A stretch of 64,000 nt of DNA, from NCBI GenBank assembly GCA_052327205.1, contig CM126205.1, forward strand, positions 294,996,001 through 295,060,000, given 5' to 3'. The notes under the pieces are model-generated. The model searched no databases, was not told the DNA's origin, and saw only the letters and a program-made list of their open reading frames with translations. The position numbers and the translations under genes are program-made. This DNA is from Somniosus microcephalus. Its lineage: Eukaryota. Below are positions 17,964-50,826 of the stretch, piece after piece (the first letter of the stretch is position 1; every line of letters begins with the position of its first letter).

Positions 17964-19473
17964 ATATATATATACACATATATAAAAAATATTAACAAAG
18001 TAATCATCAAGCATGTTTCATCATTATAATCTCACTGATGAATAAATATTCTCAATCCTTGGTAGGAAAAGAGAAAATGAGCTAATATAGATTTGTACTT
18101 TTGGCACCTGTTCGTTATCTTTTCATGTTAAAATAACTGAAATGATCCTCTGGAATTTTTGCAGTGACTTTACAACATGACTGTTGTCTGTTCATCACAA
18201 ACTTGGGCCAGAAACATAGGCAGGATGCAATTTGCAATTAACTTTAATAAAAAAAAAATGTTTTTCATGGCATGAATTCAGTGAGTACTGCTTGCCTCCA
18301 ATTCTTGCATCAATGCCTCAGGCCATTTCCACACATTATACCCACTTCACACTTGTACTGCAAATTTGCCTTTGTTGTGAATTTGCAGCACTGTCAAGAC
18401 ATCTGTCGAAGTATAATTCACGAGGAGTTATTTCTTGTGGTGAAATATTAGAACAAATAATCCCTTCACTTGGACTGTAAAGCAGAAAATTTGCATCAAA
18501 ATACAATAAACAACAGATGTGAAATGCTGCTGATTTAAAAAAAATCAATTATGTTTTATTATTTTCAAGTTTAGCAAAACAAATCCTTCCCAGCTGCAAC
18601 AGATCCATTTTATATCTACAATACCAGCTGCTAGAATTTGTGGTTTACAGATACACTTACATTGCAGATTACAAAAAAAATCAAAACCATTGGCAATTTT
18701 ATCCATTCTTCTGATACATTTTGATGCACAACCGACTTCTGTTAAAGTAATCGTTAGTTTTAATGATCAATTCCTTAAAATTATCAAAATCTGTTTTTTG
18801 AAATCACAACCCATCTGATATGTCAGTGCAATCATTTATAACGTTCAGTTATGATACATGTGTAATAGCAATTCACCAATGTTGAAAAACCTCAGTTGTA
18901 ACACTGTTAATCTGCACAATCGCATATGAATGGATAATGAGATTTTTAATTTGCTGCTAATTGGTTTATTATAAATGGGCCGAAGAGTGACTCAATGGGG
19001 TCACCGTGATCCCGTTGCACAGCACTGGAGCCACTGCTCCAAAGACACTCAGTGCGCCACCTTGCAAGTGATCTGACTTTGCCCATAATGGAAGATGAGA
19101 TCATTATAATATTTACATTTTGTTCTTAAAATATTGAAGCAGTACCACATTGACCTTTGAGGTCAAAATCCACAGAAGGAGGAAGTGAACGATGCAAAGC
19201 GCTGGTGTGTGCTGAGCAGTACTTTGTGGATCATGGGATCAGCAGTATATAATCGAGGATTGCTTCATTCTGAATTACTAATCATGGGCAAACCGTTGAT
19301 TATAACAGGATGCCCCCATACCTTTATTGTAGTGTTCGAGTATAAATAATACACGGACTGCAGGAGAACAATAATAACAGGTATTTACTGAACAGAGGGT
19401 ACTCTTTTATTTGGACCCCCAAAAAAAACAATTCGACTGTAAATAAACAAAAGTTCAACTAAAGCTTAACAAA

Positions 19474-22400
19474 TCAAATTAAAATTTGGTTTTCCGTGTT
19501 GATGATGCACTCCAGTCCCCGCGGTGCCCACCGGTCGCGGAAATACTCAAGCGCACCGGCGGGCACCGCATGCTCCATCTCCAGGGCCACCCGGGCGCGA
19601 ACATGGCCGCGGAAGAGAGGCAGGCAATCCGGCTGGACGACCCCCTCGACCGCCCGCTGCCTGGACCAATTGATGGCTCTTTTAGCCAGGCCCAGGAGCA
19701 GGCCCACAAGGAGGTCCTCCAACCTGTCCGCTCCCCTCCGCACCGGGTGACCGTAGATCAAGCGCGTGGGACTGAAGTGCAACCAAAAATCGAGGAGCAG
19801 CCCCTTCAAGTAGTGAAAGAGGGGCTGCAACCTCTCACATTCCATATAAACGTGAAACATGGACTCCTCCAGGCCGCAAAAAATGCAGGCGGCCTGGGAG
19901 TCCGTGAACCTACTTAAAACCTTATTGCACGGGACCGCTCCATGCAACACCCTCCAGGCCAAGTCCCCGATGGAACAAGGGAGGACTCCCGCGTAGCGAG
20001 CCCTCCATTGGGGACCTCCGCCACCGCCAGTTGGCAAGACACCACGCCAAGGCGTGTCCGGACGGGAGACGAAGATGGCAAAGTGGAGTGTGTGTGTGCA
20101 GGAGCAGCCCGTACAGGAAACCCCTCCGCGCGGAATGAAAAGGCACGGAGGGTATTTCCTCGAGACGGCTCAAGTTGTGAGGCGCCGGTTCCCGAGGGGT
20201 GTTTCGGGGCCGGGCGCCGATGAGGAATTCCGTCCGAACAGGGGTAAGCTCGGACGGGATCACCCCACGTGCTTGAGCTGCCTCGATACACCTAGTGGAG
20301 TCGGGGCCCAGTGCCGCTTTCACCGATTCGATGGCTTCGACCGCGAGCCGGACGTTGGCCCAGGACAGGCGCCGCGCCAGCTCCTCCGGCGCCATCCAGC
20401 CCGCTCCTCCGCCATCGAGCAGGTCCCCGACTCTGGTCACCTTGCCAAGCACAGCCCTGCCCTCCGCCAGCCGCCCGAACCCGCGTTCGTGGAGGTGCGG
20501 ATTCCTGAGCAGCGGCTCCCGAAGGAGAGCCGCCGCTCCTGACGGGGGAGAGCTCCGCCTGGAAGCGACGTAGTTCCAAACCCATAGCAGTTCCTGGTAG
20601 AAGACAGGCAGCTCCCACAGGCCGGCACGCCTGCCGCCCACTTTCGCGAACAGGAGCTGCGTGTCGCACTTGAGGCCGTGCAGCTGGCGGAAGAAAAACG
20701 TCGCCAGCGCACACCATCTCGGAGGATTCTCGACGTACAGGTATCTCTGCAGCGTCTGAAGACGGAAAGTCGCAGCCTGGGTGCGAAGGCACACCAATGC
20801 CTGACCGCCCTCTCTAAGCGGGAGACACAGAACCGCGGCAGAGACCCAGTGCTTCCTTTTGTCCCAGAAGAAGTCGATGAGCTTCTTCTGCATCTTGGCG
20901 ACAAACGCAGGGGGAGGGATCAAAGTGACCAACCGGTACCACAACATGGCGGCATCCAGCTGGTTTATGACCAGCGCTCGACCCCTGTAGGACAACACTC
21001 GGAGCAGTCCTGTCCAGCGTCCTAGGCGAGCGGTGACTTTGGCCTCCAGCTCTTGCCAGTTCGCCGGCCAGGCGTCCTCGGCAGGGCTAAGGTAGACTCC
21101 CAAATAGAGGAGGTGCGTGGTGCTCCAGGCGAAAGGCCTGGACTCCTCCGGCAGGGAGTCCACCCGCCACTGACCCACCAGGAGTCCGGAACATTTCTCC
21201 CAGTTGATCTTGGCGGAGGATGCGTCCGAGTAAATCTGCTGGCATTCCCGCATCCTCCGCAAGTCAGCGGGATCCGTGACCGTGAGGAGCACGTCATCGG
21301 CGTAAGCCGAGAGGACTACCTCCACGCCCGGCCCTTGCAGAGCCAGTCCCGTCAACCTCTTCCGCAAGAGGCGCAGGAATGGCTCCACGCAAACGGCGTA
21401 TAACTGACCGGACATGGGGCATCCCTGACGCACCCCCCTCCCGAAGCGAAGGGGCGCCGTCAAGGACCCGTTAACTTTAATCAGACACTCTGCGGCGGCG
21501 TACAAAAGTCGGATCCGGGCGATGAAATGCGTCCCGAACCCGAATGCGCGCAGAGTCCCGAAGAGATACTCGTGATCCACCCTTTCGAATGCCTTCTCCT
21601 GATCCAGGGAGAGGAAGGTGACCGACAGACCAGCCCTCTGGGAGTGGTGGACCAGGTCCCAGACCAGATGGATGTTATCATGGATGGTCCGGCCCGGGAC
21701 CGTGTAGGACTGGTCAGGTTGGATCATGTGGGCCAGCACGGTGCCAAGGCGAGCAGACATGGCCCTGGCAAAGATTTTATAGTCCGTGCTGAGGAGGGAG
21801 TCCGGGCGCCAGTTCTTAAGGAGGCGGAGATCGCCCTTCTTAGGCAGCAGGACAATGACCGCCCTGCGCCAAGTGAGGGGCATCTCCCCGGTCGCCAAAC
21901 TTTCCCCCAGGACCCGCGCGCAGTCGCCCCCCAAGACGTCCCAGAACATCCTGTGGAACTCCACGGTAAGCCCGTCCAACCCCGGGGACTTTCCCCTAGA
22001 GAGCTGGTGGAGGGCGCCGGTCAGCTCCGCCAGGCTTAGCGGAGCGTCCAGTTTTTCGGCGCCCTCCGGGCTGACCTTCAGCAGGTCCTCCCACAAAACT
22101 CTGCGTGCATCCTCGCTGGACGGATCCGGAGAGAAAAGAGCCCCGTAGTAGGCGCGGGTCTCCGCGCTGATTCCCTCCGGATCCGAGACCAGAGATCTGT
22201 CGTCGACCAGCAGCCCCAAGAGCTGCTTACGGACCCCCCGTCTTTTTTCCAGCGAGTAGAAGAAGGGGGAGCCGCGGTCCAGGTCCCGCAGGAGCTGGAT
22301 CCACGACCTCACGTACGCGCCTCGGGACCCGACGAGCTGCAGGTCCTTCAGCGCGCCCTTCTTCTCTTCGTACACCTTCCGCAGGGCCGGGTCCTCGACG

Positions 22401-23377
22401 ACCTGACCGAGGCAGGACTCCAGGTCGAGCATCTCCTTCTCCAACCGCCCGACCCGGGCCTCCCGCCTCTTGGTCGACCCCTTCGCGTACTCCTGACAGA
22501 AGAGACGGATGTGAGCCTTGCCCACATCCCACCATAGCCTCAAGGAGGGGAAGCCCCCCTGCTTCCTTCTCCAGTCGGCCCAGAATCGATGCAACGAATC
22601 CCGGAACCGTGCGTCCTCCAGCAGCAGGTTGTTAAAATGCCAGTACGCATACCCCCCCCGCGCACGCAGCGGAGCGAGCTCCGCCCATACCAGGTGGTGG
22701 TCCGTGCACGGCACCGGCCGCATGGAAGCTGCCGGAACGCAGGAGACGTACGCCCGGGAAATGTAAAGGCGGTCGATTCTGGACCTTCCTCCCCCAGACC
22801 TCACGCTAGTGAAGGCGCTGGAGTCGGGGTGGAGATTTCGCCAGACGTCCACCAAGTCGAAGGACCCAACCAGGTCCCTCAACTTCTCCATCGCCGCCGG
22901 GCTTCGCGGGGGACCCGAACGGTCCCTCGCCTCGAGGGTGCAGTTAAAATCCCCCCCGAGGATGACGCACTCGCCCACGTCGATGGAGCCCAAGAGAGCG
23001 GACACTTCTTCGAAGAAGCGCACTTGCTGCGCACTGGTCTGAGGGGCGTACACGTTCACTAGATGGAGCGGCACGCCCCCCAGGCGAACAGTGACCTGGA
23101 GCAAGCGGCCCGGCACGTGCTCCTTGACCCCCAAGATCTCCGGCTGAAAATGCGGGGCCAGCAAGATAGCCACCCCGCTGGAATTGTTGGAGAGGTGACT
23201 CATGCTGACCCCTCCTTGCCACTCCAGGAGCCACGTGGCTTCGTCTCCCGGAACGGTGTGGGTTTCTTGCAGGAAGCACACCGCATACTTCCCGTCCCGA
23301 AGGACCGAGAAGTTATTGAATCTGCGGCGCGCCTCCCTGCTGCCGTTGATGTTGAGGCTGGCTATGGTTATCTTCAT
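19474..23377 (-). pseudogene. Tx1 ORF2, copy 1 (APE-RT-Zn), frameshifted near 20090
   Basis: A (GT) expansion at about 20088-20098 splits the ORF. It has KAFE instead of KAFD and WRPDS instead of WRPVS. Confidence 0.92.
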
Positions 23378-23408
23378 GTCAGAAGCATAGTGCAACCTCT
23401 ACCTACAC

Positions 23409-25548
23409 CTAACGGGGGGAGGAAGCGCAGCCGCTGGTCCGCCGCCACTTCCTCAGCAGCCCAGTGAGAAACGTTGTGAGCCGACGCAGCTCGAGCGGGA
23501 TCACACCCTCGTCCGCGCCCAAGATCTTAACGGCGGCGCGGACGGAATCGATGAGCAGCGCCAGCTCCGACCACCTGTCGAGGGCCAGCCGGACCTTATT
23601 GCGCTGACCCAGGCACGTGGCCATAAAATCCCGGAGTTCCCTTACGGAAATGAGGGGAGACTCGGCAAGGGGCACGAGGTCATCCATCGCCACGTCGGCG
23701 CTGGAGTCCGAATCGTCCTCCGTGCCCATCACCGAGTCCCCATCCTCCTCCAGGGGGTCGTCACCAGCGGCCGACCCGTCCGCCGCACAGTGCGAAGCGA
23801 ACGACTCGGCCGCGCCAGCCAGCCCCGCCTCCGCCCGGATCCCACCCCCAGGATCGGCGGCAGAGGATTTCTCCCTGGGCTCCTCTAGGGGTGCCAGGCC
23901 AGAAGACGGCGGCGGTTCAGAGCTCCCCTCCGCCTCAGACGCCGGAACGACCGGAGAGAGAACAATTTCCAGCTCCTCCAGTACGTCCGGCACCAGAGAC
24001 GCAGCCAGGGGGCCATCCTCCTCCCCGCCACCAACCTCCGACCCAGCGGACGGGGGGTTTTGAATTAAAAGCTCGACCAGGACGAGCATCCCCTGGGAGA
24101 CGTCCGGGTCGCATTGGGCGAGCTCATTATCCTCGAGCTCGCCCGACCCAGCCCCCAGGCTGCCCGACCCGGCGAGGGGTAACGACACCGATAAAAGGTC
24201 AACTTCAATTACTGCCGCGGGTTGTTCCGCAACCCCCCCCACGGGCAGGGTCTCATCCCCATCCCCGGGAGGCACGTGCTGGACAGACACATCTGCCTCA
24301 GCCTCCCGAGGGACAGGCGACCCCTGCCGATCGCTGGTGATGACGACAGCGCTGGCGGGGGGGGGGGGGCGCAGTACCCGCGGCGGGCGACGACTCCCCC
24401 TGCTCGGAGGGACCTTCCTCCTCCCGGTCCTCCTCCTCATCCAGGGGGTCGCGCCTTCTTTTTAGCACGGAGGGAGCGAGGGAGACCTCCATGTCTGCAA
24501 AGGCGTCCTCCTCGACTCCCTCCGGCTGAGCAGGTTTGTCGGGCCCGAGCCCGGCCGCAGGTATTGGCATTACCGCTGCGGCGGTTGCGGCCACAGGCTC
24601 GGGCACGGGGCCCCTCCCGCTCACATCTGCCCTGATCAACTCCGCGAGGAGCGCGGGTGTAAGGGGCTCAAGGGGCAAGGGCTCACCATCCACGGGGGGA
24701 CCTGCCCTAAGGTGCTTCTTTTTTCCCCGCGCCTTCTTTCCGGCCGGACACGCTCCCTCCCCCCCGCCGGAGGCCTTGGTGGCATCGGCCCCCGACGTCA
24801 ACCGCGCATCAGACGTACTTGACGCGCGGGCAGATCCGGGGGGAAGGGCGGCGGCGGCGGCGCCAGCCTCGGCCGCACGAGATGATCCGGCGGCCTTGGA
24901 GGCAGGGCAGTTCCTCCTGATGTGCCCCACCTCCCTGCAGGCATGGCACCTCACACCGTCCGACGTCCAAAAGGCGCGGTAGGCGGTCCCCTCGTGGAGG
25001 ACGACGAACGCCCCTTCAGTGTCCTCCTCCCGCGCCAGCTGGATAAACAGCTGGCGCCGGAAGGAGAAGACGTGGCGAAGGCTGGCCTCCCGGAAGCCGA
25101 GCGGGATGGGCGTGATCCCCGACCTCACCTCCCCAAGTTGTCGCAAATGGGGAAGGAGGAGCTCACCAGGAACATAGGGCGGGACGTTGGAAATAATGAT
25201 CCTCTGCGCGGTGGCCTCGAGAGGATCCACCGGCAGGAAGGTCCCGCCCACGGTGAGCCCCTTGGCGACAGCCAGGGACACCGCCCGCTCCGACCCCAGG
25301 AAGAACACAGCCTTCCCATACATTTTCGAGGCCGCGACGATGGCTGAGGGGCCGACAACCCCAGCCATGGCCTTGACGCAGGCCTCGATGGTCATAGTGG
25401 GGTGAGTGTAGCTCTTCACCCCAAGCTTTTTTGTTATTAATCGAAAAGGTGACGGGGCAGCAGGAACAGCGGGAGCAGCTGTGGCTGTGGCTACCACTCT
25501 CGCATAGGTCCCAGCTGGCCCCGCCACCGGCGAAGACGCAGTCGCCAT
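23409..25548 (-). pseudogene. Tx1 ORF1, copy 1, frameshifted at a G-run near 24360
   Basis: Two ORF pieces (24298-25590 and 23409-24440) join to match the 718-aa ORF1 of copy 3. It has two 9-bp deletions. Confidence 0.88.
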
Positions 25549-26625
25549 TCTGGGGTGCTTTTTTTTTTTTTTTTTAAGGGCTACACTCACCCCAAGTCAC
25601 AGGCCTGAAGGTGTTAATGGCCTCGGTGTATATATATATTTTTTTGTCCTCTATTGAGCAGAGGGAGCTGATTAAAATGAGGACACACCTCTCTCCTTAT
25701 TGATTTAAATTGGGAGAGGAGCCCTCACCCCTCTGCTCAATTGGCAATTAATAAAATAGATGAAACTAAGGTGCCTTAGAAAGACAGGCAGAGAGAGACA
25801 AAGAGAGAGAGAGAGAGGTGGGGGGGGTGGGAAGGAGGGAGGACGCAAAGGGCAGTGTTGCCACTCAGGATGGTGGGTGGGTGTTGGCAGGGTTGCACTC
25901 TCCGATGGAAAAAGTCTTTGGCGGTCTTCTGGCAGGGGGAGAAGACGTCTTCATCTGGAAAAGCTGGAGAAGCCCAGGCTTAGTCCTGCAACAGGTCTTA
26001 ACGATGTAATTAAATTAAATTAAGGACTTCACCTTGGGCAGCTCCAAGCTCTCCCAGGGCAGGCAATAGAAGGGATGCTAATTAGTGGTGTGTGTGGCCT
26101 AGCTTTTAACAAGAGCACACACACACTACACCCCTTGATGATCCGGCCTTGCTTCTTCTTTTCTCCCCCCACCTAAAATACAAAGTCTTGGGAGAGTGCC
26201 CCAAATAACACCCACCTGTAGATGTTCCGGATGAAGTTTTCTTCCCTCCTTTCAAGCAGTTGGTTTCTCTCCCCTCTCTCCCTCTCCTGAAGTGGAGGCC
26301 AATTTGGGGAGGCAGTGATAGAAAGGCCTCTCCCCTGGTTGATGTTGATGTAGGCCTCCTTTCTCCTTCTCCTTCTCCTCCTCTGTCCTCTCTCTCCAGG
26401 CACCTCAGTTGATGTAATGATGGTGGAGTTGGTGGTGGTGGTGGTGGTTCAACGTTCTCCTCCTCTTCCTGGTCAGGGGACCACCACTTTAATCCACTCT
26501 CCAAAGTCTGGCTGCTCCCTCTGCTCGTGCTTGTAGCTGAACAGAGGGTACTCTTTTATTTGGACTCAAAAAAAAAAACCCAATCCAACTGTAAATAAAC
26601 AAAAGTTCAACTAAAGCTTAACAAA

Positions 26626-29600
26626 TCAAATTAAAATTTGGTTTTCCGTGTTGATGATGCACTCCAGTCCCCGCGGCGCCCATCGGTCGCGGAAATACTC
26701 AAGCGCACCGGCGGACACCGCGTGCTCCATCTCCAGGGCCACCCGGGCGCGAACATGGCCGCGGAAGAGATGCAGGCAATCCGGCTGGACGACCCCCTCG
26801 ACCGCCCGCTGCCTGGACCAATTGATGGCTCTTTTAGCCAGGCCCAGGAGCAGGCCCACAAGGAGGTCCTCCAACCTGTCCGCTCCCCTCCGCACCGGGT
26901 GACCGTAGATCAAGAGCGTGGGACTGAAGTGCAACCAAAAATCGAGGAGCAGCCCCTTCAAGTAGTGAAAGAGGGGCTGCAACCTCTCACAATCCATATA
27001 AACGTGAAACACGGACTCCTCCAGGCCGCAAAAAATGCAGGCGGCCTGGGAGTCCGTGAACCTACTTAAAACCTTATTGCACGGGACCGCTCCGTGCAAC
27101 ACCCTCCAGGCCAAGTCCCCGATGGAACAAGGGAGGACTCCCGCATAGAGAGCCCTCCATTGGGGACCTCCGCTGCCGCCGGTCGGCAAAACGCCACGCC
27201 AAGGCGTGTCCGGACGGTAGACGAAGATGGCAAAGTGGAGAGTGTGCAGGAGCAGCCCGTACAGGAAACCCCTCCGCGCGGAATGAAAAGGCACGGAGGG
27301 TATTTCCTCGAGACGGCTCAAGTTGTGAGGCGCCGGTTCCCGAGGGGAGTTTCGGGGCCGGGCGCCGATGAGGAATTTCGTCCGAACGGGGGTAAGCTCG
27401 GACGGGATCGCCCCACGTGCTTGAGCCGCCTCGATACACCTAGTGGAGTCGGGGCCCAGTGCCGCTTTTACCGATTCGATGGTTTCGACCGCGAGCTGGA
27501 CGTTGGCCCAGGACAGGCGCCGCGCCAGCTCCTCCGGCGCCATCCAGCCCGCTCCTCCGCCATCGAGCAGGTCCCCGACTCTGGTCACCTTGCCAGCCAC
27601 AGCCCTACCCTCCGCCAGCCGCCCGAACCCGAGTTCGTGGAGGTGCGGATTCCTGAGCAGCGGCTCCCGAAGGAGAGCCGCCGCTCCTGACGGGGGAGAG
27701 CTCCGCCTGGAAGCGACGTAGTTCCAAACCCATAGTCGTTCCTGGTAGAAGACAGGCAGCTCCCACAGGCCGGCACGCCTGCTGCCCACTTTCGCAAACA
27801 GGAGCTGCGTGTCGTAATTGAGGCCATGCAGCTGGCGGAAGAAAAACGTCGCCAGCGCACACCATCTCGGAGGATTCTCGACGTACAGGTATCTCTGCAG
27901 CGTCTGAAGACGGAAAGTCGCAGCCTGGGTGCGAAGGCACACCAGCGCCTGACCGCCCTCCCTAAGCAGGAGACACAGAACCGCGGCAGAGACCCAGTGC
28001 TTCCTTTTGTCCCAGAAGAAGTCGATGAGCTTCTTCTGAATCTTGGCGACAAACGCAGGGGGAGGGATCAAAGTGACCAACCGGTACCACAACATGGCGG
28101 CCACCAGCTGGTTTATGACCAGCGCTCGACCCCTGTAGGACAACACTCGGAGCAGTCCTGTCCAGCGTCCTAGGCGAGCTGTGACTTTGGCCTCCAGCTC
28201 TTGCCAGTTCGCCGGCCAAGCGTCCTCGGCAGGGCTAAGGTAGACTCCCAAATAGAGGAGGTGCGTGGTGCTCCAGGCGAAAGGCCTGAACTCCTCTGGC
28301 AGGGAGTCCACCCGCCACTGACCCACCAGGAGTCCGGAACATTTCTCCCAGTTGATCTTGGCGGAGGATGCGTCCGAGTAAATCTGCTGGCATTCCCGCA
28401 TCCTCCGCAAGTCAGCGGGATCCGTGACCGTGAGGAGCACGTCATCGGCGTAAGCCGAGAGGACCACCTCCACGCCCGGCCCTTGCAGAGCCAGTCCCGT
28501 CAACCTCTTCCGCAAGAGGCGCAGGAAAGGCTCCACGCAAATGGCATATAACTGACCGGACATGGGGCATCCCTGACGCACCCCCCTCCCGAAGCGAAGG
28601 GGCGCCGTCAAGGACCCGTTAACTTTAATCAGACACTCCGCGGCGGCGTACAGAAGTCGGATCCGGGCGACGAAATGCGTCCCGAACCCGAATGCGCGCA
28701 GAGTCCCGAAGAGATACTCGTGATCCACCCTGTCGAACGCCTTCTCCTGATCCAGGGAAAGGAAGGCGACCGACAGACCAGCCCTCTGGGAGTGGTGGAC
28801 CAGGTCCCGGACCAGATGGATGTTATCGTGGATGGTCCGGCCCGGGACCGTGTAGGACTGGTCGGGGTGGATCATGTGGGCCAGCACGGTGCCAAGGCGA
28901 GCAGACATGGCCCTGGCAAAGATTTTATAGTCCGTGCTGAGGAGGGAGACCGGGCGCCAGTTCTTAAGGAGGCGGAGATCGCCCTTCTTAGGCAGCAGGA
29001 CAATGACCGCCCTGCGCCAAGAGAGGGGCATCTCCCCGGTCGCCAAACTTTCCCCCAGGACCCGCGCGTAGTCGCCCCCCAAGACGTCCCAGAACGCCCT
29101 GTGGAACTCTACGGTCAGCCCGTCCAGCCCCGGGGACTTTCCCCTAGAGAGCTGGCAGAGGGCACCGGTCAGCTCCGCCAGACTTAGCGGAGCGTCCAAT
29201 TTTTCGGCGCCCTCCGGGCCAACCTTCGTCAGGTCCTCCCACAAAACTCTGCGCGCATCCTCGCTGGATGGATCCGGAGAGAACAGAGCCCCGTAATAGG
29301 CGCGGGTCTCCGCGCTGATTCCCTCCGGATCCGAGACCAGAGATCCGTCGTCGGCCAGCAGCCCCAAGAGCTGCTTACGAACCCCCCGTCTTTTTTCCAG
29401 CGAGTAGAAGAAGGGGGAGCCGCGGTCCAGGTCCCGCAGGAGCTGGATCCGCGACCTCACGTACGCGCCTCGGGACCCGACGAGCTGCAGGTCCTTCAGC
29501 GCGCCCTTCTTCTCTTCGTACACCTTCCGCAGGGCCGGGTCCTCGACGACCTGACCGAGACGGGACTCCAGGTCGAGCACCTCCTTCTCCAACCGCCCGA

Positions 29601-30525: not shown

Positions 30526-30556
30526 GTCAGAAGCATAGTGCAACCTCTACCTACAC

Positions 30557-32715: not shown

Positions 32716-33793
32716 TCTGGGGTGCTTTTTTTTTAATTTTTTTTTTAAGGGCTACACTCACCCCAAGTCACAGGCCTGAAGGTGTTAATAGCCTCGGTGT
32801 ATATATATATATTTTTTTGTCCTCTATTGAGCAGAGGGAGCTGATTAAAATGAGGACACACCTCTCTCCTTATTGATTTAAATTGGGAGAGGAGCCCTCG
32901 CCCCTCTGCTCAATTGGCAATTAATAAAATAGATGAAACTAAGGTGCCTTAGAAAGACAGGCAGAGAGAGACAAAGAGAGAGAGAGAGGTGGGGGGGTGG
33001 GAAGGAGGGAGGCCGCAAAGGGCAGTGTTGCCACTCAGGATGGTGGGTGGGTGTAGGCAGGGTTGCACTCTCCGATGGAAAAAGTCTTTGGTGATGGTGG
33101 TCTTCTGGCAGGGGGAGAAGACGTCTTCACCTGGAAAAGCTGGAGAAGCCCAGGCTTAGTCCTGCAACAGGTCTTAACGATGTAATTAAATTAAATTAAG
33201 GACTTCACCTTGGGCAGCTCCAAGCTCTCCCAGGGCAGGCAATAGAAGGGATGCTAATTAGTGGTGTGTGTGGCCTAGCTTTTAACAAGAGCACACACAC
33301 ACTACACCCCTTGATGATCCGGCCTTGCTTCTTCTTTTCTCCCCCCACCTAAAATACAAAGTCTTGGGAGAGTGCCCCAAATAACACCCACCTGTAGATG
33401 TTCCGGATGAAGTTTTCTTCCCTCCTTTCAAGCAGTTGGTTTCTCTCCCCTCTCTCCCTCTCCTGAAGTGGAGGCCAATTTGGGGAGGCAGTGATAGAAA
33501 GGCCTCTCCCCTGGTTGATGTTGATGTAGGCCTCCTTTCTCCTTCTCCTCCTCTGTCCTCTCTCTCCAGGCACCTCAGTTGATGTAATGATGGTGGAGTT
33601 GGTGGTGGTGGTGGTGGTTCAACGTTCTCCTCCTCTTCCTGGTCAGGGGACCACCACTTTAATCCACTCTCCAAAGTCTGGCTGCTCCCTCTGCTCGTGC
33701 TTGTAGCTGAACAGAGGGTACTCTTTTATTTGGACCCAAAAAAAAAACCAATTCGACTGTAAATAAACAAAAGTTCAACTAAAGCTTAACAAA

Positions 33794-36700
33794 TCAAATT
33801 AAAATTTGGTTTTCCGTGTTGATGATGCACTCCAGTCCCCGCGGCGCCCACCGGTCGCGGAAATACTCAAGCGCACCGGCGGACACCGCGTGCTCCATCT
33901 CCAGGGCCACCCGGGCGCGAACATGGCCGCGGAAGAGATGCAGGCAATCCGGCTGGACGACCCCCTCGACCGCCCGCTGCCTGGACCAATTGATGGCTCT
34001 TTTAGCCAGGCCCAGGAGCAGGCCCACAAGGAGGTCCTCCAACCTGTCCGCTCCCCTCCGCACCGGGTGACCGTAGATCAAGAGCGTGGGACTGAAGTGC
34101 AACCAAAAATCGAGGAGCAGCCCCTTCAAGTAGTGAAAGAGGGGCTGCAACCTCTCACAATCCATATAAACGTGAAACACGGACTCCTCCAGGCCGCAAA
34201 AAATGCAGGCGGCCTGGGAGTCCGTGAACCTACTTAAAACCTTATTGCACGGGACCGCTCCGTGCAACACCCTCCAGGCCAAGTCCCCGATGGAACAAGG
34301 GAGGACTCCCGCATAGAGAGCCCTCCATTGGGGACCTCCGCTACCGCCGGTCGGCAAAACGCCACGCCAAGGCGTGTCCGGACGGTAGACGAAGATGGCA
34401 AAGTGGAGAGTGTGCAGGAGCAGCCCGTACAGGAAACCCCTCCGCGCGGAATGAAAAGGCACGGAGGGTATTTCCTCGAGACGGCTCAAGTTGTGAGGCG
34501 CCGGTTCCCGAGGGGAGTTTCGGGGCCGGGCGCCGATGAGGAATTCCGTCCGAACGGGGGTAAGCTCGGACGGGATCGCCCCACGTGCTTGAGCCGCCTC
34601 GATACACCTAGTGGAGTCGGGGCCCAGTGCCGCTTTTACCGATTCGATGGTTTCGACCGCGAGCTGGACGTTGGCCCAGGACAGGCGCCGCGCCAGCTCC
34701 TCTGGCGCCATCCAGCCCGCTCCTCCGCCATCGAGCAGGTCCCCGACTCTGGTCACCTTGCCAGCCACAGCCCTACCCTCCGCCAGCCGCCCGAACCCGT
34801 GTTCGTGGAGGTGCGGATTCCTGAGCAGCGGCTCCCGAAGGAGAGCCGCCGCTCCTGACGGGGGAGAGCTCCGCCTGGAAGCGACGTAGTTCCAAACCCA
34901 TAGTAGTTCCTGGTAGAAGACAGGCAGCTCCCGCAGGCCGGCACGCCTGCTGCCCACTTTCGCAAACAGGAGCTGCGTGTCGTAATTGAGGCCATGCAGC
35001 TGGCGGAAGAAAAACGTCGCCAGCGCACACCATCTCGGAGGATTCTCGACGTACAGGTATCTCTGCAGCGTCTGAAGACGGAAAGTCGCAGCCTGGGTGC
35101 GAAGGCACACCAGCGCCTGACCGCCCTCCCTAAGCGGGAGACACAGAACCGCGGCAGAGACCCAGTGCTTCCTTTTGTCCCAGAAGAAGTCGATGAGCTT
35201 CTTCTGAATCTTGGCGACAAACGCAGGGGGAGGGATCAAAGTGACCAACCGGTACCACAACATGGCGGCCACCAGCTGGTTTATGACTAGCGCTCGACCC
35301 CTGTAGGACAACACTCGGAGCAGTCCTGTCCAGCGTCCTAGGCGAGCGGTGACTTTGGCCTCCAGCTCTTGCCAGTTCGCCGGCCAAGCGTCCTCGGCAG
35401 GGCTAAGGTAGACTCCCAAATAGAGGAGGTGCGTGGTGCTCCAGGCGAAAGGCCTGAACTCCTCCGGCAGGGAGTCCACCCGCCACTGACCCACCAGGAG
35501 TCCGGAACATTTCTCCCAGTTGATCTTGGCGGAGGATGCGTCCGAGTAAATCTGCTGGCATTCCCGCATCCTCCGCAAGTCAGCGGGATCCGTGACCGTG
35601 AGGAGCACGTCATCGGCGTAAGCCGAGAGGACCACCTCCACGCCCGGCCCTTGCAGAGCCAGTCCCGTCAACCTCTTCCGCAAGAGGCGCAGGAAAGGCT
35701 CCACGCAAATGGCATATAACTGACCGGACATGGGGCATCCCTGACGCACCCCCCTCCCGAAGCGAAGGGGCGCCGTCAAGGACCCGTTAACTTTAATCAG
35801 ACACTCCGCGGCGGTGTACAGAAGTCGGATCCGGGCGACGAAATGCGTCCCGAACCCGAATGCGCGCAGAGTCCCGAAGAGATACTCGTGATCCACCCTG
35901 TCGAACGCCTTCTCCTGATCCAGGGAAAGGAAGGCGACCGACAGACCAGCCCTCTGGGAGTGGTGGACCAGGTCCCGGACCAGATGGATGTTATCGTGGA
36001 TGGTCCGGCCCGGGACCGTGTAGGACTGGTCGGGGTGGATCATGTGGGCCAGCACGGTGCCAAGGCGAGCAGACATGGCCCTGGCAAAGATTTTATAGTC
36101 CGTGCTGAGGAGGGAGACCGGGCGCCAGTTCTTAAGGAGGCGGAGATCGCCCTTCTTAGGCAGCAGGACAATGACCGCCCTGCGCCAAGAGAGGGGCATC
36201 TCCCCGGTCGCCAAACTTTCCCCCAGGACCCGCGCGTAGTCGCCCCCCAAGACGTCCCAGAACGCCCTGTGGAACTCCACGGTCAGCCCGTCCAGCCCCG
36301 GGGACTTTCCCCTAGAGAGCTGGCGGAGGGCGCCGGTCAGCTCCGCCAGACTTAGCGGAGCGTCCAATTTTTCGGCGCCCTCCGGGCCAACCTTCGTCAG
36401 GTCCTCCCACAAAACTCTGCGCGCATCCTCGCTGGACGGATCCGGAGAGAACAGAGCCCCGTAATAGGCGCGGGTCTCCGCGTTGATTCCCTCCGGATCC
36501 GAGACCAGAGATCCGTCGTCGGCCAGCAGCCCCAAGAGCTGCTTACGGACCCCCCGTCTTTTTTCCAGCGAGTAGAAGAAGGGGGAGCCGCGGTCCAGGT
36601 CCCGCAGGAGCTGGATCCGCGACCTCACGTACGCGCCTCGGGACCCGACGAGCTGCAGGTCCTTCAGCGCGCCCTTCTTCTCTTCGTACACCTTCCGCAG

Positions 36701-37693
36701 GGCCGGGTCCTCGACGACCTGACCGAGACGGGACTCCAGGTCGAGCACCTCCTTCTCCAACCGCCCGACCCGGGCCTCCCGCCTCTTGGTCGACCCCTTC
36801 GCGTACTCCTGACAGAAGAGACGGATGTGAGCCTTGCCCACATCCCACCATAGCCTCAAGGAGGGGAAGCCCCCCTGCTTCCTTCTCCAGTCGGCCCAGA
36901 ATCGACGAAACGAATCCCGGAACCGTGCGTCCTCCAGCAGCAGGTTGTTAAAATGCCAGTACACGGACCCCCCCCGCGTGCGCAGCGGAGCGAGCTCCGC
37001 CCACACCAGGTGGTGGTCCGTGCACGGCACCGGCCGCATGGAAGCTGCCGGAACGCAGGAGACGAACGCCCGGGAAATGTAGAGGCGGTCGATTCTGGAC
37101 CTTCCTCCCCCAGACCTCACGCTAGTGAAGGCGCTGGAGTCGGGGTGGAGATTTCGCCAGACGTCCACCAAGTCGAAGGACCCAACCAGGTCCCTCAACT
37201 TCTCCATCGCCGCCGGGCTTCGCGGGGGACCCGAACGGTCCCTCGCCTCGAGGGTGCAGTTAAAATCCCCCCCGAGGATGACGCACTCGCCCACGTCGAT
37301 GGAGCCCAAGAGAGCGGACACTTCTTCGAAGAAGCGCACTTGCTGCGCACTGGTCTGAGGGGCGTACACGTTCACTAGATGGAGCGGCACGCCCCCCAGG
37401 CGAACAGTGACATGGAGCAAGCGGCCCGGCACGTGCTCCTTGACCCCCAAGATCGCCGGCTGAAAATGCGGGGCCAGCAAGATAGCCACCCCGCTGGAAT
37501 TGTTGGAGAGGTGACTCATGCTGACCCCTCCTTGCCACTCCAGGAGCCACGTGGCTTCGTCTCCCGGAACGGTGTGGGTTTCTTGCAGGAAGCACACCGC
37601 ATACTTCCCGTCCCGAAGGACCGAGAAGTTATTGAATCTGCGGCGCGCCTCCCTGCTGCCGTTGATGTTGAGGCTGGCTATGGTTATCTTCAT
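33794..37693 (-). CDS. Tx1 ORF2, copy 3: APE endonuclease, RT and Zn finger
   Basis: All APE and RT motifs are intact (LQETH, GGDFN, TDH, KAFD, QGCP, YADD). C-terminal CxxC...H...C. Confidence 0.96.
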   Translation of the reverse strand: MKITIASLNINGSREARRRFNNFSVLRDGKYAVCFLQETHTVPGDEATWLLEWQGGVSMSHLSNNSSGVAILLAPHFQPAILGVKEHVPGRLLHVTVRLGGVPLHLVNVYAPQTSAQQVRFFEEVSALLGSIDVGECVILGGDFNCTLEARDRSGPPRSPAAMEKLRDLVGSFDLVDVWRNLHPDSSAFTSVRSGGGRSRIDRLYISRAFVSCVPAASMRPVPCTDHHLVWAELAPLRTRGGSVYWHFNNLLLEDARFRDSFRRFWADWRRKQGGFPSLRLWWDVGKAHIRLFCQEYAKGSTKRREARVGRLEKEVLDLESRLGQVVEDPALRKVYEEKKGALKDLQLVGSRGAYVRSRIQLLRDLDRGSPFFYSLEKRRGVRKQLLGLLADDGSLVSDPEGINAETRAYYGALFSPDPSSEDARRVLWEDLTKVGPEGAEKLDAPLSLAELTGALRQLSRGKSPGLDGLTVEFHRAFWDVLGGDYARVLGESLATGEMPLSWRRAVIVLLPKKGDLRLLKNWRPVSLLSTDYKIFARAMSARLGTVLAHMIHPDQSYTVPGRTIHDNIHLVRDLVHHSQRAGLSVAFLSLDQEKAFDRVDHEYLFGTLRAFGFGTHFVARIRLLYTAAECLIKVNGSLTAPLRFGRGVRQGCPMSGQLYAICVEPFLRLLRKRLTGLALQGPGVEVVLSAYADDVLLTVTDPADLRRMRECQQIYSDASSAKINWEKCSGLLVGQWRVDSLPEEFRPFAWSTTHLLYLGVYLSPAEDAWPANWQELEAKVTARLGRWTGLLRVLSYRGRALVINQLVAAMLWYRLVTLIPPPAFVAKIQKKLIDFFWDKRKHWVSAAVLCLPLREGGQALVCLRTQAATFRLQTLQRYLYVENPPRWCALATFFFRQLHGLNYDTQLLFAKVGSRRAGLRELPVFYQELLWVWNYVASRRSSPPSGAAALLREPLLRNPHLHEHGFGRLAEGRAVAGKVTRVGDLLDGGGAGWMAPEELARRLSWANVQLAVETIESVKAALGPDSTRCIEAAQARGAIPSELTPVRTEFLIGARPRNSPREPAPHNLSRLEEIPSVPFHSARRGFLYGLLLHTLHFAIFVYRPDTPWRGVLPTGGSGGPQWRALYAGVLPCSIGDLAWRVLHGAVPCNKVLSRFTDSQAACIFCGLEESVFHVYMDCERLQPLFHYLKGLLLDFWLHFSPTLLIYGHPVRRGADRLEDLLVGLLLGLAKRAINWSRQRAVEGVVQPDCLHLFRGHVRARVALEMEHAVSAGALEYFRDRWAPRGLECIINTENQILI

Positions 37694-37724
37694 GTCAGAA
37701 GCATAGTGCAACCTCTACCTACAC

Positions 37725-39881
37725 CTAACGGGGCGAGGAAGCGCAGCCGCTGGTCAGCCGCCACTTCCTCAGCAGCCCAGTGAGAAACGTTGTGAGCCGA
37801 CGCAGCTCGAGCGGGTTCACACCCTCATCCGCGCCCAAGATCTTAACGGCGGCGCGGACGGAATCGATGAGCAGCGCCAGCTCCGACCACCTGTCGAGGG
37901 CCAGCCGGACCTTATTGCGCTGACCCAGGCACGTGGCCATAAAATCCCGGAGTTCCCTTACGGAAATGAGGGGAGACTCGGCAAGGGGCACGAGGTCATC
38001 CATCGCCACGTCGGCGCTGGAGTCCGAATCATCCTCCGTGCCCATCACCGAGTCCCCATCCTCCTCCAGGGGGTCGTCACCAGCGGCCGACCCGTCCGCC
38101 GCGCAGTGCGAAGCGAACGACTCGGCCGCGCCAGCCAGCCCCGCCTCCGCCCGGATCCCACCCCCAGGATCGGCGGCAGAGGATTTCTCCCTGGGCTCCT
38201 CTAGGGGTGCCGGGCCAGAAGACGGCGGCGGTTCAGAGCTCCCCTCCGCCTCAGACGCCGGAACGACCGGAGAAACCGGGGAGAGAACAATTTCCAGCTC
38301 CTCCAGTACGTCCGGCACCAGAGACGCAGCCAGGGGGCCATCCTCCTCCCCGCCACCAACCTCCGACCCAGCGGACGGGGGGTTTTGAATTAAAAGCTCC
38401 ACCAGGACGAGCATCCCCTGGGAGACGTCCGGGTCGCATTGGGCGAGCTCATTATCCTCGAGCTCGCCCGACCCAGCCCCCAGGCTGCCCGACCCGGCGA
38501 GGGGTAACGACACCGATAAAAGGTCAACTTCAATTACTGCCGCGGGTTGTTCCGCAACCCCCCCCACGGGCAGGGTCTCATCCCCATCCCCGGGAGGCAC
38601 GTGCTGGACAGACACATCTGCCTCAGCCTCCCGAGGGACAGGCGACCCCTGCCGATCGCTGGTGATGACGACAGCGCTGGGGGGGCGGGGGGGCGCAGTA
38701 CCCGCGGCGGGCGACGACTCCCCCTGCTCGGAGGGACCTTCCTCCTCCCGGTCCTCCTCCTCATCCAGGGGGTCGCGCCTTCTTTTTAGCACGGAGGGAG
38801 CGAGGGAGACCTCCATGTCTGCAAAGGCCTCCTCCTCGACTCCCTCCGGCGGAGCAGGTTTGTCGGGTTCCTCGGGCCCGAGCCCGGCCGCAGGTATTGG
38901 CATTACCGCTGCGGCGGTTGCGGCCACAGGCTCGGGCACGGGGCCCCTCCCGCTCACATCTGCCCTGATCAACTCCGCGAGGAGCGCGGGTGTAAGGGGC
39001 TCAAGGGGCAAGGGCTCACCATCCACGGGCGGACCTGCCCTAAGGTGCTTCTTTTTTCCCCGCGCCTTCTTTCCGGCTAGACACGCTCCCTCCCCCCCGC
39101 CGGAGGCCTTGGTGGCATCGGCCCCCGACGTCAACCGCGCATCAGACGTACTTGACGCGCGGGCAGATCCGGGGGGAAGGGCGGCGGCGGCGGCGCCAGC
39201 CTCGGCCGCACGAGACGGTCCGGCGGCCTTGGAGGCAGGGCAGTTCCTCCTGATGTGCCCCACCTCCCTGCAGGCATGGCACCTCACACCGTCCGACGTC
39301 CAAAAGGCGCGGTAGGCGGTCCCCTCGTGGAGGACGACGAACGCCCCTTCAGTGTCCTCCTCCCGCGCCAGCTGGATAAACAGCTGGCGCCGGAAGGAGA
39401 AGACGTGGCGAAGGCTGGCCTCCCGGAAGCCGAGCGGGATGGGCGTGATCCCCGACCTCACCTCCCCAAGTTGTCGCAAATGGGGAAGGAGGAGCTCACC
39501 AGGAACATAGGGCGGGACGTTGGAAATAATGATCCTCTGCGCGGTGGCCTCGAGAGGATCCACCGGCAGGAAAGTCCCGCCCACGGTGAGCCCCTTGGCG
39601 ACAGCCAGGGACACCGCCCGCTCCGACCCCAGGAAGAACACAGCCTTCCCATACATTTTCGAGGCCGCGACGATGGCTGAGGGGCCGACAACCCCAGCCA
39701 TGGCCTTGACGCAGGCCTCGATGGTCATAGTGGGGTGAGTGTAGCTCTTCACCCCAAGCTTTTTTGTTATTAATCGAAAAGGTGACGGGGCAGCAGGAAC
39801 AGCGGGAGCAGCTGTGGCTGTGGCTACCACTCTCGCATAGGTCCCGGCTGGCCCCGCCACCGGCGAAGATGCAGTCGCCAT
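37725..39881 (-). CDS. Tx1 ORF1, copy 3 (gag-like, CCHC zinc knuckle, long acidic disordered region)
   Basis: 718 aa with IVAASKMYGKAVFFL, IIISNVPPY, HVFSFRRQ and CHACREVGHIRRNC. Confidence 0.93.
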   Translation of the reverse strand: MATASSPVAGPAGTYARVVATATAAPAVPAAPSPFRLITKKLGVKSYTHPTMTIEACVKAMAGVVGPSAIVAASKMYGKAVFFLGSERAVSLAVAKGLTVGGTFLPVDPLEATAQRIIISNVPPYVPGELLLPHLRQLGEVRSGITPIPLGFREASLRHVFSFRRQLFIQLAREEDTEGAFVVLHEGTAYRAFWTSDGVRCHACREVGHIRRNCPASKAAGPSRAAEAGAAAAALPPGSARASSTSDARLTSGADATKASGGGEGACLAGKKARGKKKHLRAGPPVDGEPLPLEPLTPALLAELIRADVSGRGPVPEPVAATAAAVMPIPAAGLGPEEPDKPAPPEGVEEEAFADMEVSLAPSVLKRRRDPLDEEEDREEEGPSEQGESSPAAGTAPPRPPSAVVITSDRQGSPVPREAEADVSVQHVPPGDGDETLPVGGVAEQPAAVIEVDLLSVSLPLAGSGSLGAGSGELEDNELAQCDPDVSQGMLVLVELLIQNPPSAGSEVGGGEEDGPLAASLVPDVLEELEIVLSPVSPVVPASEAEGSSEPPPSSGPAPLEEPREKSSAADPGGGIRAEAGLAGAAESFASHCAADGSAAGDDPLEEDGDSVMGTEDDSDSSADVAMDDLVPLAESPLISVRELRDFMATCLGQRNKVRLALDRWSELALLIDSVRAAVKILGADEGVNPLELRRLTTFLTGLLRKWRLTSGCASSPR

Positions 39882-40879
39882 TCTGGGGTGCTTTTTTTAA
39901 GGGCTACACTCACCCCAAGTCACAGGCCTGAAGGTGTTAATAGCCTCGGTGTATATATATATATTTTTTTGTCCTCTATTGAGCAGAGGGAGCTGATTAA
40001 AATGAGGACACACCTCTCTCCTTATTGATTTAAATTGGGAGAGGAGCCCTCGCCCCTCTGCTCAATTGGCAATTAATAAAATAGATGAAACTAAGGTGCC
40101 TTAGAAAGACAGGCAGAGAGAGACAAAGAGAGAGAGAGAGGTGGGGGGGTGGGAAGGAGGGAGGCCGCAAAGGGCAGTGTTGCCACTCAGGATGGTGGGT
40201 GGGTGTAGGCAGGGTTGCACTCTCCGATGGAAAAAGTCTTTGGTGATGGTGGTCTTCTGGCAGGGGGAGAAGACGTCTTCACCTGGAAAAGCTGGAGAAG
40301 CCCAGGCTTAGTCCTGCAACAGGTCTTAACGATGTAATTAAATTAAATTAAGGACTTCACCTTGGGCAGCTCCAAGCTCTCCCAGGGCAGGCAATAGAAG
40401 GGATGCTAATTAGTGGTGTGTGTGGCCTAGCTTTTAACAAGAGCACACACACACTACACCCCTTGATGATCCGGCCTTGCTTCTTCTTTTCTCCCCCCAC
40501 CTAAAATACAAAGTCTTGGGAGAGTGCCCCAAATAACACCCACCTGTAGATGTTCCGGATGAAGTTTTCTTCCCTCCTTTCAAGCAGTTGGTTTCTCTCC
40601 CCTCTCTCCCTCTCCTGAAGTGGAGGCCAATTTGGGGAGGCAGTGATAGAAAGGCCTCTCCCCTGGTTGATGTTGATGTAGGCCTCCTTTCTCCTTCTCC
40701 TCCTCTGTCCTCTCTCTCCAGGCACCTCAGTTGATGTAATGATGGTGGAGTTGGTGGTGGTGGTGGTGGTTCAACGTTCTCCTCCTCTTCCTGGTCAGGG
40801 GACCACCACTTTAATCCACTCTCCAAAGTCTGGCTGCTCCCTCTGCTCGTGCTTGTAGCTGAACAGAGGGTAACTTACG

Positions 40880-40913
40880 ACTGAAATACAGAAGCCTGCT
40901 ATGGCTTTATATA
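40880..40913 (-). promoter_or_regulatory. TATA plus initiator core promoter of the solo LTR, pointing into the Tx1 array
   Basis: TATATAAA starts at 40913. TCAGT Inr has its A(+1) at 40882, exactly 31 nt downstream. Confidence 0.7.
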
Positions 40914-41556
40914 CAGGGGTGGTCACTGCCGGTACTGCAGTATAGAATCAGTTCTTCTCTTAAAGGTACATACACAACATTTATATAAGCAAATAAAAAT
41001 CAGATCTGGTCACCAGTCAGAGCTCATCCAATTATATTTATATTTTCTAATGGACATCTTTCAATAAAGAGATTAAATATTTATTACAGTGGGTTCTTGT
41101 ATTTATTTCCCAAATTTAGCAAGGAAAACAATGTGGGGCATTAAAAAAACCCTAGGTGAAAGAATAAGAAAACGATAGTGAGCAGGATCATAGTTCTTTA
41201 ACTATTAAGATTGTTCTTGCTTTCCATCTTTTGAGACAAAAAATATTCCTCATGACTGGCTACACATTTCCATTTCCCAAAGTGTGGCAAGAGGATCCTT
41301 GAAATTCCTCAATAAGTCCATCAAATCTATTTGGACAGCATCCTCTGACACTATGGGGAGAATTTTAACCTCAAAAATGGGCGGGTTTGGGTTGGGTGGG
41401 AGGATAAAGTGTTAAAAATCTGAATCACAACCCCAACTGGCCTCCAGCCCGGCCACTTCCAGTTTTAACGGAGGCGGGATGGTGGGGGGGGGGCAGGGGG
41501 TGCAACGGGGGTGGGGGGGGTGCAGAAGGTGGGGTGGAGGGGAAGGGGGTGGGGTG

Positions 41557-43944: not shown

Positions 43945-44229
43945 GGGTGGAGGGGCGGGCAGCCAATCCATTCCCAGGAAGTGGTTTGCCACTTTAAATA
44001 TGATAATGAGGCTGGAAGCCTCAGCTTTAACTTGCTTTGCAGGCTTAACTGTGGCCGGCCGGGGTTTCCGGGCTTTCTGCCCCCCTCCCCGGGGTTGGGA
44101 ATCGGACCCCCCCCCCAACGGGATTGGACCACCCCCACAGGGCCGAGGATCGGACCTACCTGGTCCTGCGGCCTTTTGTCCACCATTCCCCCCCGCCACC
44201 CCTGACTGCCAGTGACGTCACACACACGC

Positions 44230-49649: not shown

Positions 49650-50826
49650 TACTCCCAGTCCTGGGGGCTCTACTTGTAGTCCACCTCGCTCTGGAGTATG
49701 ACAGGGAGATGGAGCAGAGGCAGCAAAGAAGAGGACAAGCTCCTCGCAGAGGGAGGAGGTTGGAGTGGCAAGAGGGTTCTCAGCAGGAGGCCTTACCCAC
49801 CTAGGGTCTTCAAGAGCATTTTTCCTACCTGAACTTAAGCCAGGAGCAGTGTATTCAGAAGTTCCACTTCATCAAGGAGGTGGTCACAGAACTCTGCCAC
49901 CTCTTGGAACCAGACATGCAGCCTCAGAGCAGGGTGACGATGGTGCTGCCAGTGGCCCTCAAGGTCACCATGGCCCTCAATTTTTTCACCACCGGATCCT
50001 TCCAGTCTGGAGCAGGAGACAAAGATAACATCTCCCAGTTCACCATCCGTCGCAGCAGCTGGGAGGTCACAGACGCGCTGTACTCCAGGTGAAGAGATTT
50101 CATTGTCTTCTCTCTGAACAGAGAGAAGCAGCAGGAGCGTACATGTGGCTATCAGGCTTCCCCATAATGCAGGGCACCACTGACTATACACATGTGGCTT
50201 TGCCGGCGCCGTATATCAATCCTGAGATGTACCGTAACCGCAAAGGCTACCACGCACTTAATGTGTAGTTGGTGTGCGACCACGCCCAGCACATCATGAT
50301 GGTGAATGCCCGGTATCCTGGCAGCAGTCATGATGCCTTCATCCTGTGCCAGTCCGGTCTGCCAGCAATCTTCCAGCCACCACGTCGAACCTAAGGATGG
50401 CTGCTCGGAGACAAAAGCTATCCGCTCTACATCTGGCTGATGACTCCCCTCCACAACCCCACCACTCGTGGCCAGCACTCATATAATGAGAGCCATGCTG
50501 CCACGAGGAACCTCATCAAGTGGACCATTGGGGTTCTAAAGCAACGGTTCCGCTGCATTGACCGTTCGGGAGGAGTCCTCCAGTACTCGCCAGAGCAGGT
50601 GGTGGTCTGCCACATCCTGCACAAATTGGCCATCATGAGGGCACAGTCCTTGCTACCGCGGGTTCCGGGACCACCTCAGGAGAAGGAGGAGGAGGAGAAA
50701 GAGGAGTAGGAAGAAGTGGTGGAGGAGGAGGAAGAGGAGGATGAGGAGGAAAGGAGGAGGCAGGCAGCAGATGCCCGTTCCGGACAGGATGTCCATGAGC
50801 ACCTCATCAGAATCCGGTTGCTCTGA
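49650..50826 (+). pseudogene. Harbinger nuclease pseudogene
   Basis: VTELCHLL...LKVTMALNFFTTGSFQ, RNRKGYH, YPGSSHDAFIL, GDKSY, IGVLKQRFRC and an acidic tail. Stops and frameshifts are present. Confidence 0.88.

Follow-up and report, generated by a model that had tools for sequence, protein, structure and literature searches.

A Tx1-type LINE family targets a single 14-base site within the predicted R region of a shark Ty3/Gypsy long terminal repeat

In the genome of Somniosus microcephalus, a 181-bp long terminal repeat (LTR) is split by three tandem copies of a long interspersed nuclear element (LINE) of the Tx1 type. The locus lies in a 64,000-nucleotide stretch of contig CM126205.1 (assembly GCA_052327205.1, forward-strand positions 294,996,001 to 295,060,000), which we call the window and by whose positions all window features are numbered. 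Here we describe this array and follow its target site through the genome. We conclude with good confidence that throughout the genome a Tx1-clade LINE family lands on a single 14-base site within the predicted R region of a Gypsy LTR, in the sense of that LTR, and that its RNA likely carries a piece of the upstream LTR.

The site is a 14-mer, CTGAACAGAGGGTA, that occurs exactly four times in the window (Table 1). Between these occurrences lie three LINE copies on the minus strand, of 7,135, 7,156 and 7,138 bp in order of position, with mutual identities of 98.1-99.3%. The outer LTR pieces measure 74 and 107 bp and together make up the 181 bp; the rebuilt LTR starts with TGT, ends with ACA and has TTTAT on either side. 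A predicted TATA box, TATATAAA, begins 31 nt upstream of the A of TCAGT, the predicted initiator. Counted from this A as +1, the target duplication of the LINE covers +11 to +24 of the predicted LTR transcript and runs into AGTAAA, the predicted poly(A) signal. We re-read these features base by base: the four target copies, the rebuilt solo LTR, the TATA box, the initiator and AGTAAA all lie where the preliminary description of this DNA had placed them.

Judged by its sequence, the inserted element is a Tx1-clade LINE with two reading frames. Open reading frame 2 (ORF2) matches the Pfam families PF03372, PF00078 and PF13966 (the last below its cut-off), and its catalytic motifs are present. 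Over residues 1-500 it is 48% identical to ORF2 of Xenopus Tx1, the sole named LINE among the top matches; the closest named relative is a horn shark protein (74%). The CCHC knuckle of ORF1 is visible in the sequence, and its zf-CCHC match (E=0.0014) falls just below the cut-off. Features of the Tx1 clade found here are an ORF2 with apurinic/apyrimidinic endonuclease (APE), reverse transcriptase (RT) and C-terminal zinc finger, a CCHC motif in ORF1, and site-specific insertion with target duplication. The 3' end lacks a poly(A) tail. Its final letters in young copies are AATAAAAGAG; these copies have their own AATAAA, where older ones have AACAAA. The 5' untranslated region (UTR) is 980 nt long, with a TA run near 39965. 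On the minus strand between 39880 and 40300, pyrimidine tracts ending in AG near 40282 and 40100 resemble splice acceptors; no splice joint appears in the RNA read listing.

To what does the target LTR belong? With its U3/R half as query, 30 loci among 40 scored matches comprised 24 empty LTRs, five LTRs with Tx1 (one of them the window) and one with a retrocopy of a tRNA. The sequence rebuilt in the preliminary description is thus a real multicopy LTR. Of 41 empty LTRs, all 41 have a TATA-like box, 38 have A(G/A)TAAA and 34 fit a strict initiator pattern, with TCAGT made out by eye in 40; all three signals are predicted from motif and spacing. A profile search of one natural copy places the LTR in a 5-kb element with a single gag-protease-RT-RNase H-integrase frame and no env. 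Paired TG..CA LTRs, a primer-binding site, a polypurine tract and a 4-5-bp duplication are all present, and the nearest named relatives are K02A2.6-like/Gypsy proteins of fish and skate (70-77%). From these features the target is classed as the LTR of a Ty3/Gypsy retrotransposon. It may belong to the Mag clade, marked by a tRNA-Ser primer, a single frame and a short LTR; of these traits the single frame and the 181-bp LTR are seen here.

How general is the arrangement? In an exact-pattern count over the whole genome, 1,452 of 1,495 exact Tx1 3' tails (97.1%) adjoin GGGTA, the first five bases of the target, and reversed control patterns gave 0. The count takes in only copies with the exact young 17-mer, older copies having been sampled rather than counted, and this narrows what it says of the family as a whole. 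Queries built from the element alone, containing no LTR letters, led to the same site: all 30 5' ends and all 30 3' ends that were fetched, from 40 and 46 listed matches and with the window's own ends included, lie at the 14-mer. Beside these ends the 14-mer has at most one substitution; behind a truncated copy at locus L076 only 12 nt of it are found. Beyond it comes either an LTR half (19 of the 5' ends, 17 of the 3' ends) or another Tx1 (11 and 13). The flank is orientation-specific, and therefore the counted Tx1 copies are all in the sense of the LTR. Twelve of the other 43 tails were read: nine lie at a variant target in an LTR or array, one lies off the LTR and two are not Tx1. Counted from the LTR side, there are 1,047 filled and 1,537 empty sites, an occupancy of 40.5%. 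A few of the rows scored as empty hold mini-insertions (L183), and exact patterns miss older Tx1 copies as well as diverged LTRs; a first look had given 3,097 candidates. These counts establish the site, the orientation and the scale of insertion. The preliminary description had proposed an LTR-targeting LINE from this one locus and had named the flanks of other Tx1 copies as the check. In nearly all cases those flanks turn out to be one common site, and site-specific, sense-only insertion into the R region of a single LTR family is borne out genome-wide.

Table 1. Features of the Tx1 array and of the solo LTR that contains it (window positions)
Feature	Position	Strand	Basis
5-bp target duplication (TTTAT) of solo LTR, left copy	19323..19327	.	
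Downstream part (predicted R-U5) of Ty3/Gypsy solo LTR	19328..19387	-	Match to empty LTRs with TGG primer-binding site after or polypurine tract before
AGTAAA, predicted LTR poly(A) signal, overlapping last 2 nt of Tx1 target	19384..19389	-	A(G/A)TAAA in 38/41 empty LTRs
14-bp Tx1 target copy 1 (downstream, LTR side)	19388..19401	-	
Tx1 copy 3: oldest, both frames broken, 3' half older-type, 5' half young	19402..26536	-	
14-bp target copy 2 (tandem junction)	26537..26550	-	
Tx1 copy 2: ORF1 broken, ORF2 open (26626-30546 stop to stop)	26551..33706	-	
14-bp target copy 3 (tandem junction)	33707..33720	-	
Tx1 copy 1: both frames open; youngest of the three; ends in AATAAAAGAG without poly(A) tail	33721..40858	-	
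ORF2 of copy 1: APE endonuclease, reverse transcriptase (YADD), C-terminal zinc finger	33794..37693	-	Pfam, motifs
ORF1 of copy 1, one CCHC knuckle	37725..39878	-	zf-CCHC just below cut-off
14-bp target copy 4 (upstream; predicted +11 to +24 of LTR transcript)	40859..40872	-	
TCAGT, predicted initiator (A = 40882)	40880..40884	-	Motif and spacing
TATATAAA, predicted TATA box	40906..40913	-	Motif and spacing
Upstream part (predicted U3 and start of R) of solo LTR	40873..40979	-	
5-bp target duplication (TTTAT) of solo LTR, right copy	40980..40984	.	

The one insertion seen outside any LTR is a 205-bp copy (L206:205-438) flanked by its own 15-bp duplication. This 15-mer resembles the target. The case suggests, single as it is, that sequence rather than distance to a TATA box is what is read.

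Much shorter inserts also occur at the site. Mini-insertions of about 10-13 nt of Tx1 tail come with a full target duplication (L075, L183, L149, L143, L150), one 12-nt form being found at three loci; they are likely abortive priming events. At two further loci on different contigs (L006:1395-1500 and L118:1500-1607), the Tx1 target holds a retrocopy of a tRNA-Ser(TGA) precursor, with its trailer and the last 10-11 nt of the Tx1 tail, between 14-bp duplications. ARAGORN labels these inserts Leu and Pro, a consequence of changed anticodons. They are likely template switches or a proto-SINE (short interspersed nuclear element). We rejected a SINE family for now: of 40 scored matches, 38 have no Tx1 tail, and the four of these that were scanned are tRNA-Ser(TGA) genes in tandem arrays.

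Did each LINE arrive on its own, or did Tx1 enter an LTR once or a few times and multiply as cargo of the Gypsy element? The uniform junctions would suit such co-amplification, and both LTRs are filled in five of 12 readable pairs (16 were fetched). In six of the 12, though, the partner LTR is empty, and in one it holds a mini-insert, proportions that fit the 40.5% occupancy (binomial p 0.56). Three elements (L137, L139, L252) carry different Tx1 variants in their two LTRs, one of the 86-90% and one of the 98-99% type. Several LTR subtypes have been hit, copies truncated at the 5' end have differing ends and 12-14-bp duplications (L184, L185, L186, L222, L163), and mini-inserts, tRNA retrocopies and the insertion outside any LTR add to the case. 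The insertions are separate events that took place after Gypsy integration, since the partner of a filled LTR is often empty and the site also takes truncated copies and retrocopies of pre-tRNA. Co-amplification is largely refuted and now scarcely credible, and with it goes the suggestion, made in the preliminary description, that the LINE hitchhikes on the LTR element.

Within the window, both frames are open only in copy 1, which lies nearest the promoter and is separated by 19 differences from a young copy at an unlinked locus. Between copies 1 and 2 there are 49 differing sites over 5,940 nt, and the 1,198 nt at the 5' end are identical (Poisson p 5e-5). All three are identical over 576 nt and have in common three private variants near the 5' end. 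Because these 5' ends are shared, the three copies are not fully independent. Outside the identical tracts they differ at 49-139 sites, and 37 of the 39 old-type sites of copy 3 fall within the first 3,362 nt from its 3' end. We lean towards the view that arrays grow at the promoter side, a new copy being completed from, or converted by, the 5' end of its neighbour; later gene conversion fits the window array equally well. As a marker of the direction of growth, tail types were rejected, the excess of old-tail-downstream pairs (6 versus 3) not being significant. The identical tracts and private variants could also betray an assembly artefact or a plain segmental triplication, as could the single truncation point that is repeated in some other arrays (L149, L185, L186). 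The differences outside the tracts and the older-type 3' half of copy 3 weigh against this, RNA reads and contigs from other runs span the tandem junction, and we regard such an origin as very improbable.

Two side observations concern arrays. Contigs under a second organism label (run X2, from the same study as X1) place the target next to the Tx1 tail (33708-33783) and also extend across the tandem junction; the Tx1/LTR system may therefore be shared with a relative. At L149 (G000:C1:134707500-134710500), eleven tandem 224-bp truncated Tx1 ends with one common breakpoint lie inside an LTR, a small satellite from one insertion.

Where does the upstream copy of the target come from? One and the same 5' junction, letter for letter, is found 1,035 times, as against 1,452 tails, and is the form in 10 of 11 single insertions. 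LTRs with distinctive targets are informative. Among the first 100 listed filled rows are 17 LTRs whose target holds an additional nucleotide (9 matched by coordinate, 8 fetched): the upstream copy has the common form in 15 and a shared deleted form in one, is unread in one and has the local form in none. At four loci, each on a different contig, the upstream target shows the same internal deletion of 2 nt, which is absent from the downstream copies there. In one array the outer targets are ordinary and the middle junction is that of another LTR subtype. In four cases an empty sister LTR shows what the site was like before insertion: the upstream copy has been replaced in three of them and kept in one. 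The four filled solo LTRs contained whole in one locus all keep matching 5-bp duplications, even the two whose upstream junction has changed (L154, L211), and this speaks against crossing-over between loci.

In many cases, then, the 5' junction matches other loci and not the local LTR, a pattern to be expected of an RNA that includes upstream target. The same explanation has been given for uniform and inherited junctions in some R2 elements (PMC3774820). It is probable, on this pattern of inheritance, that Tx1 RNA carries the upstream target and that the upstream copy is partly RNA-derived. Junction types also cluster on the tree overall (25 changes against 33.4 when shuffled, 0/200; 58 of 88 rows used).

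Other observations weigh against an RNA-borne target. No junction type forms one clade on the same tree. Upstream LTR sequence (+1 to +10) is not duplicated at the 5' junctions, whereas R2 shows some such duplications; the one match was a 12-nt tail fragment. The common junction can be reached by 7-of-8 microhomology from a form 26 nt longer, five of whose six rows belong to the young clade. One locus (L034/L136) kept its local variant upstream, and the tandem junction of L085 has the T form. Part of the 5' uniformity within arrays is copying from neighbours. A rare TGTAG junction variant was tried separately as a clade marker and rejected, being scattered on the tree and common to neighbours.

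Insertion might proceed as follows. The APE endonuclease of ORF2 would read the target, nicking one strand directly ahead of TACCC and its complement some 14 nt further along, and reverse transcription would start on a tail that has no poly(A) stretch; we infer nicking and priming from established target-primed reverse transcription. Transcription of the source copy would have entered from upstream LTR DNA, and the cDNA end would then, as we think probable, pair with the exposed target and reproduce the 5' junction of the source copy.

The preliminary description went further and had the LINE borrow the LTR promoter. The inherited junctions do suggest that upstream LTR is part of the RNA; the predicted start itself fares less well, as reads pass the predicted initiator and no 5' duplication reaches +1. 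RNA came from two raw runs with the same species label (X7 and X8, of which 24% and 31% were read); no RNA data set was listed for 40100-40990. Two results count against a start at +1. In X8, 20 reads cross the 5' junction and extend a median of 37 LTR letters beyond it, where 10 would be expected, and in X7 there is no pile-up at +1, nor are loose ends of that kind listed. In X8, 19 reads cross the 3' junction and run a median of 49 letters into U5. Borrowing of the LTR poly(A) signal is a further proposal of the preliminary description, to be seen beside these reads and the AATAAA that young copies have of their own. Neither run yielded a transcript start or a poly(A) site. The reads neither show nor exclude a start at +1, because there are many source copies and tissue and strand are unknown. 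Tx1 transcription may start at the LTR's own TATA box and initiator, a possibility to which we give somewhat less than even weight.

Might the LINE instead have the same targeting and an internal promoter, its 5' uniformity arising from precise starts, microhomology and gene conversion, and the position of the TATA box being incidental? The long 5' UTR, with its TA run, has room for one, and the longer 5' forms offer the microhomology described above. RNA and junctions give no +1 signal; in X7 the reads of one direction are most numerous within the 5' UTR and drop to zero at the junction; and the off-LTR copy at L206 landed without a TATA box. An internal promoter accounts poorly for deletions and subtype variants of the upstream target that are common to unlinked loci and absent from their downstream copies, and for the fact that the dominant form, with about 70% of copies, is 26-32 nt shorter at its 5' end than older forms. 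We hold it to be unlikely.

We judge equally unlikely that the RNA derives by read-through from transcripts begun further upstream (in the Gypsy element via its 3' LTR, in the host or in an upstream copy), which would also supply the upstream target. The reach of the X8 reads past the junction is what read-through predicts, although intronic copies would give such reads equally. In the L236/L240 array, LTR markers at +7 and +9 are also of the common type, and many filled LTRs are 3' LTRs of whole elements; at L038, L047 and L164, by contrast, the local markers at +6 and +8 are kept. An Rfam scan of 39800-41000 for a ribozyme that could process such transcripts found none, only five chance matches far below their cut-offs.

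The LTR family itself may be responding. A subtype with three linked changes around the nick (L097, L098, L100, L023, L241) accounts for seven of the first 100 listed empty sites and at most eight filled sites genome-wide, of which one or two have the subtype's other markers (Fisher p 1e-4, with rows that are not independent). Its LTR pairs differ at 4/180 and 3/144 positions (two pairs), as against 2-7 of about 181 in five others. The subtype is thus about ten times less occupied and, on two LTR pairs, not younger-looking; on these small numbers, escape of the target is a possibility. A wider and quite tentative picture is that of a promoter-less hyperparasite, a LINE that depends on the Gypsy LTR for its site, its start and its 5' joining, occupies about 40% of its targets and drives their escape. 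If true, an arms race of transposon against transposon would be readable at single-base resolution.

The window also holds other transposable elements. At 54355-59178 lies a different Ty3/Gypsy element with 251-bp LTRs (54532-54782 and 58747-58997) and one 1,306-codon frame. It is flanked not by a 4-5-bp duplication but by a 181-bp direct duplication (54355-54535 and 58998-59178; two differences), and its LTR end on the primer side is not CA. A truncated or internally deleted Gypsy-type element occupies 41551-43948, with 313-bp direct repeats and an RNase H-integrase frame, 570 bp past the LTR. A Harbinger-like DDE_Tnp_4 transposase frame and a 68% related copy lie at 3701-4987 and 49788-50730.

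Together with sister LTRs that preserve the site as it was before insertion, about 1,450 young insertions form a large natural dataset. It bears on how APE-type LINEs join their 5' ends and on the question of mutual suppression among transposons. An APE enzyme that keeps to one 14-base site with 97% fidelity, delivers mostly whole 7-kb copies and has also placed tRNA precursors ending in only about 10 tail bases is a candidate for site-specific insertion work. For annotation, Tx1 arrays split LTRs into halves and hide solo LTRs.

How does this family compare with known systems? In the literature outside Repbase Reports and subscription papers, we found nothing beyond one sentence in the main text of PMC4494074 on LINEs inserted at a fixed position within the R region of an LTR, and no report of such occupancy or of inherited junctions in a Tx1 element; passages of PMC13708176 and PMC3747384 contain nothing on LTR targets. 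That sentence states that the crocodilian families Tx1-8_Crp and Tx1-4_AMi prefer LTR retrotransposons (Kojima 2015, PMC4494074), and the earlier remark that no Tx1 was known to target an LTR R region was accordingly overstated. In that main text the preference is defined by a threshold of >20% of flanks, with no LTR superfamily or position, and its figure and supplements may narrow the gap; the shark family uses one nucleotide position in the LTR for 97% of tails, in one orientation, at about 40% occupancy.

Xenopus Tx1L and Tx2L are alike in being sequence-specific Tx1 LINEs nested in another transposon, with the ORF2 identity given above, and unlike in that their target is a non-autonomous DNA transposon rather than the promoter region of a retrotransposon (PMC4494074, PMC6719617). 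Crocodilian Tx1-Mar and SINEU offer a second parallel within the main text of PMC4494074: a transposon-targeting Tx1 that also moves small RNAs into its target, with transcription from the flanking transposon proposed for SINEU-2. Tx1-Mar differs in its Mariner target, its two loose regions and its use of both orientations, and the counterpart here is two tRNA retrocopies and no SINE family. R2 resembles the shark element in its uniform 5' junctions and in aberrant junctions propagated via upstream target in the RNA; it differs (PMC3774820) in its restriction-like endonuclease, Pol I co-transcription, ribozyme like that of hepatitis delta virus (HDV) and host-gene target. The Tx1 described here has an APE domain, no Rfam ribozyme in the region scanned and no upstream duplications. 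Set beside these systems, it is a real LTR-targeting Tx1 family, unusually strict in its choice of site and unusually abundant.

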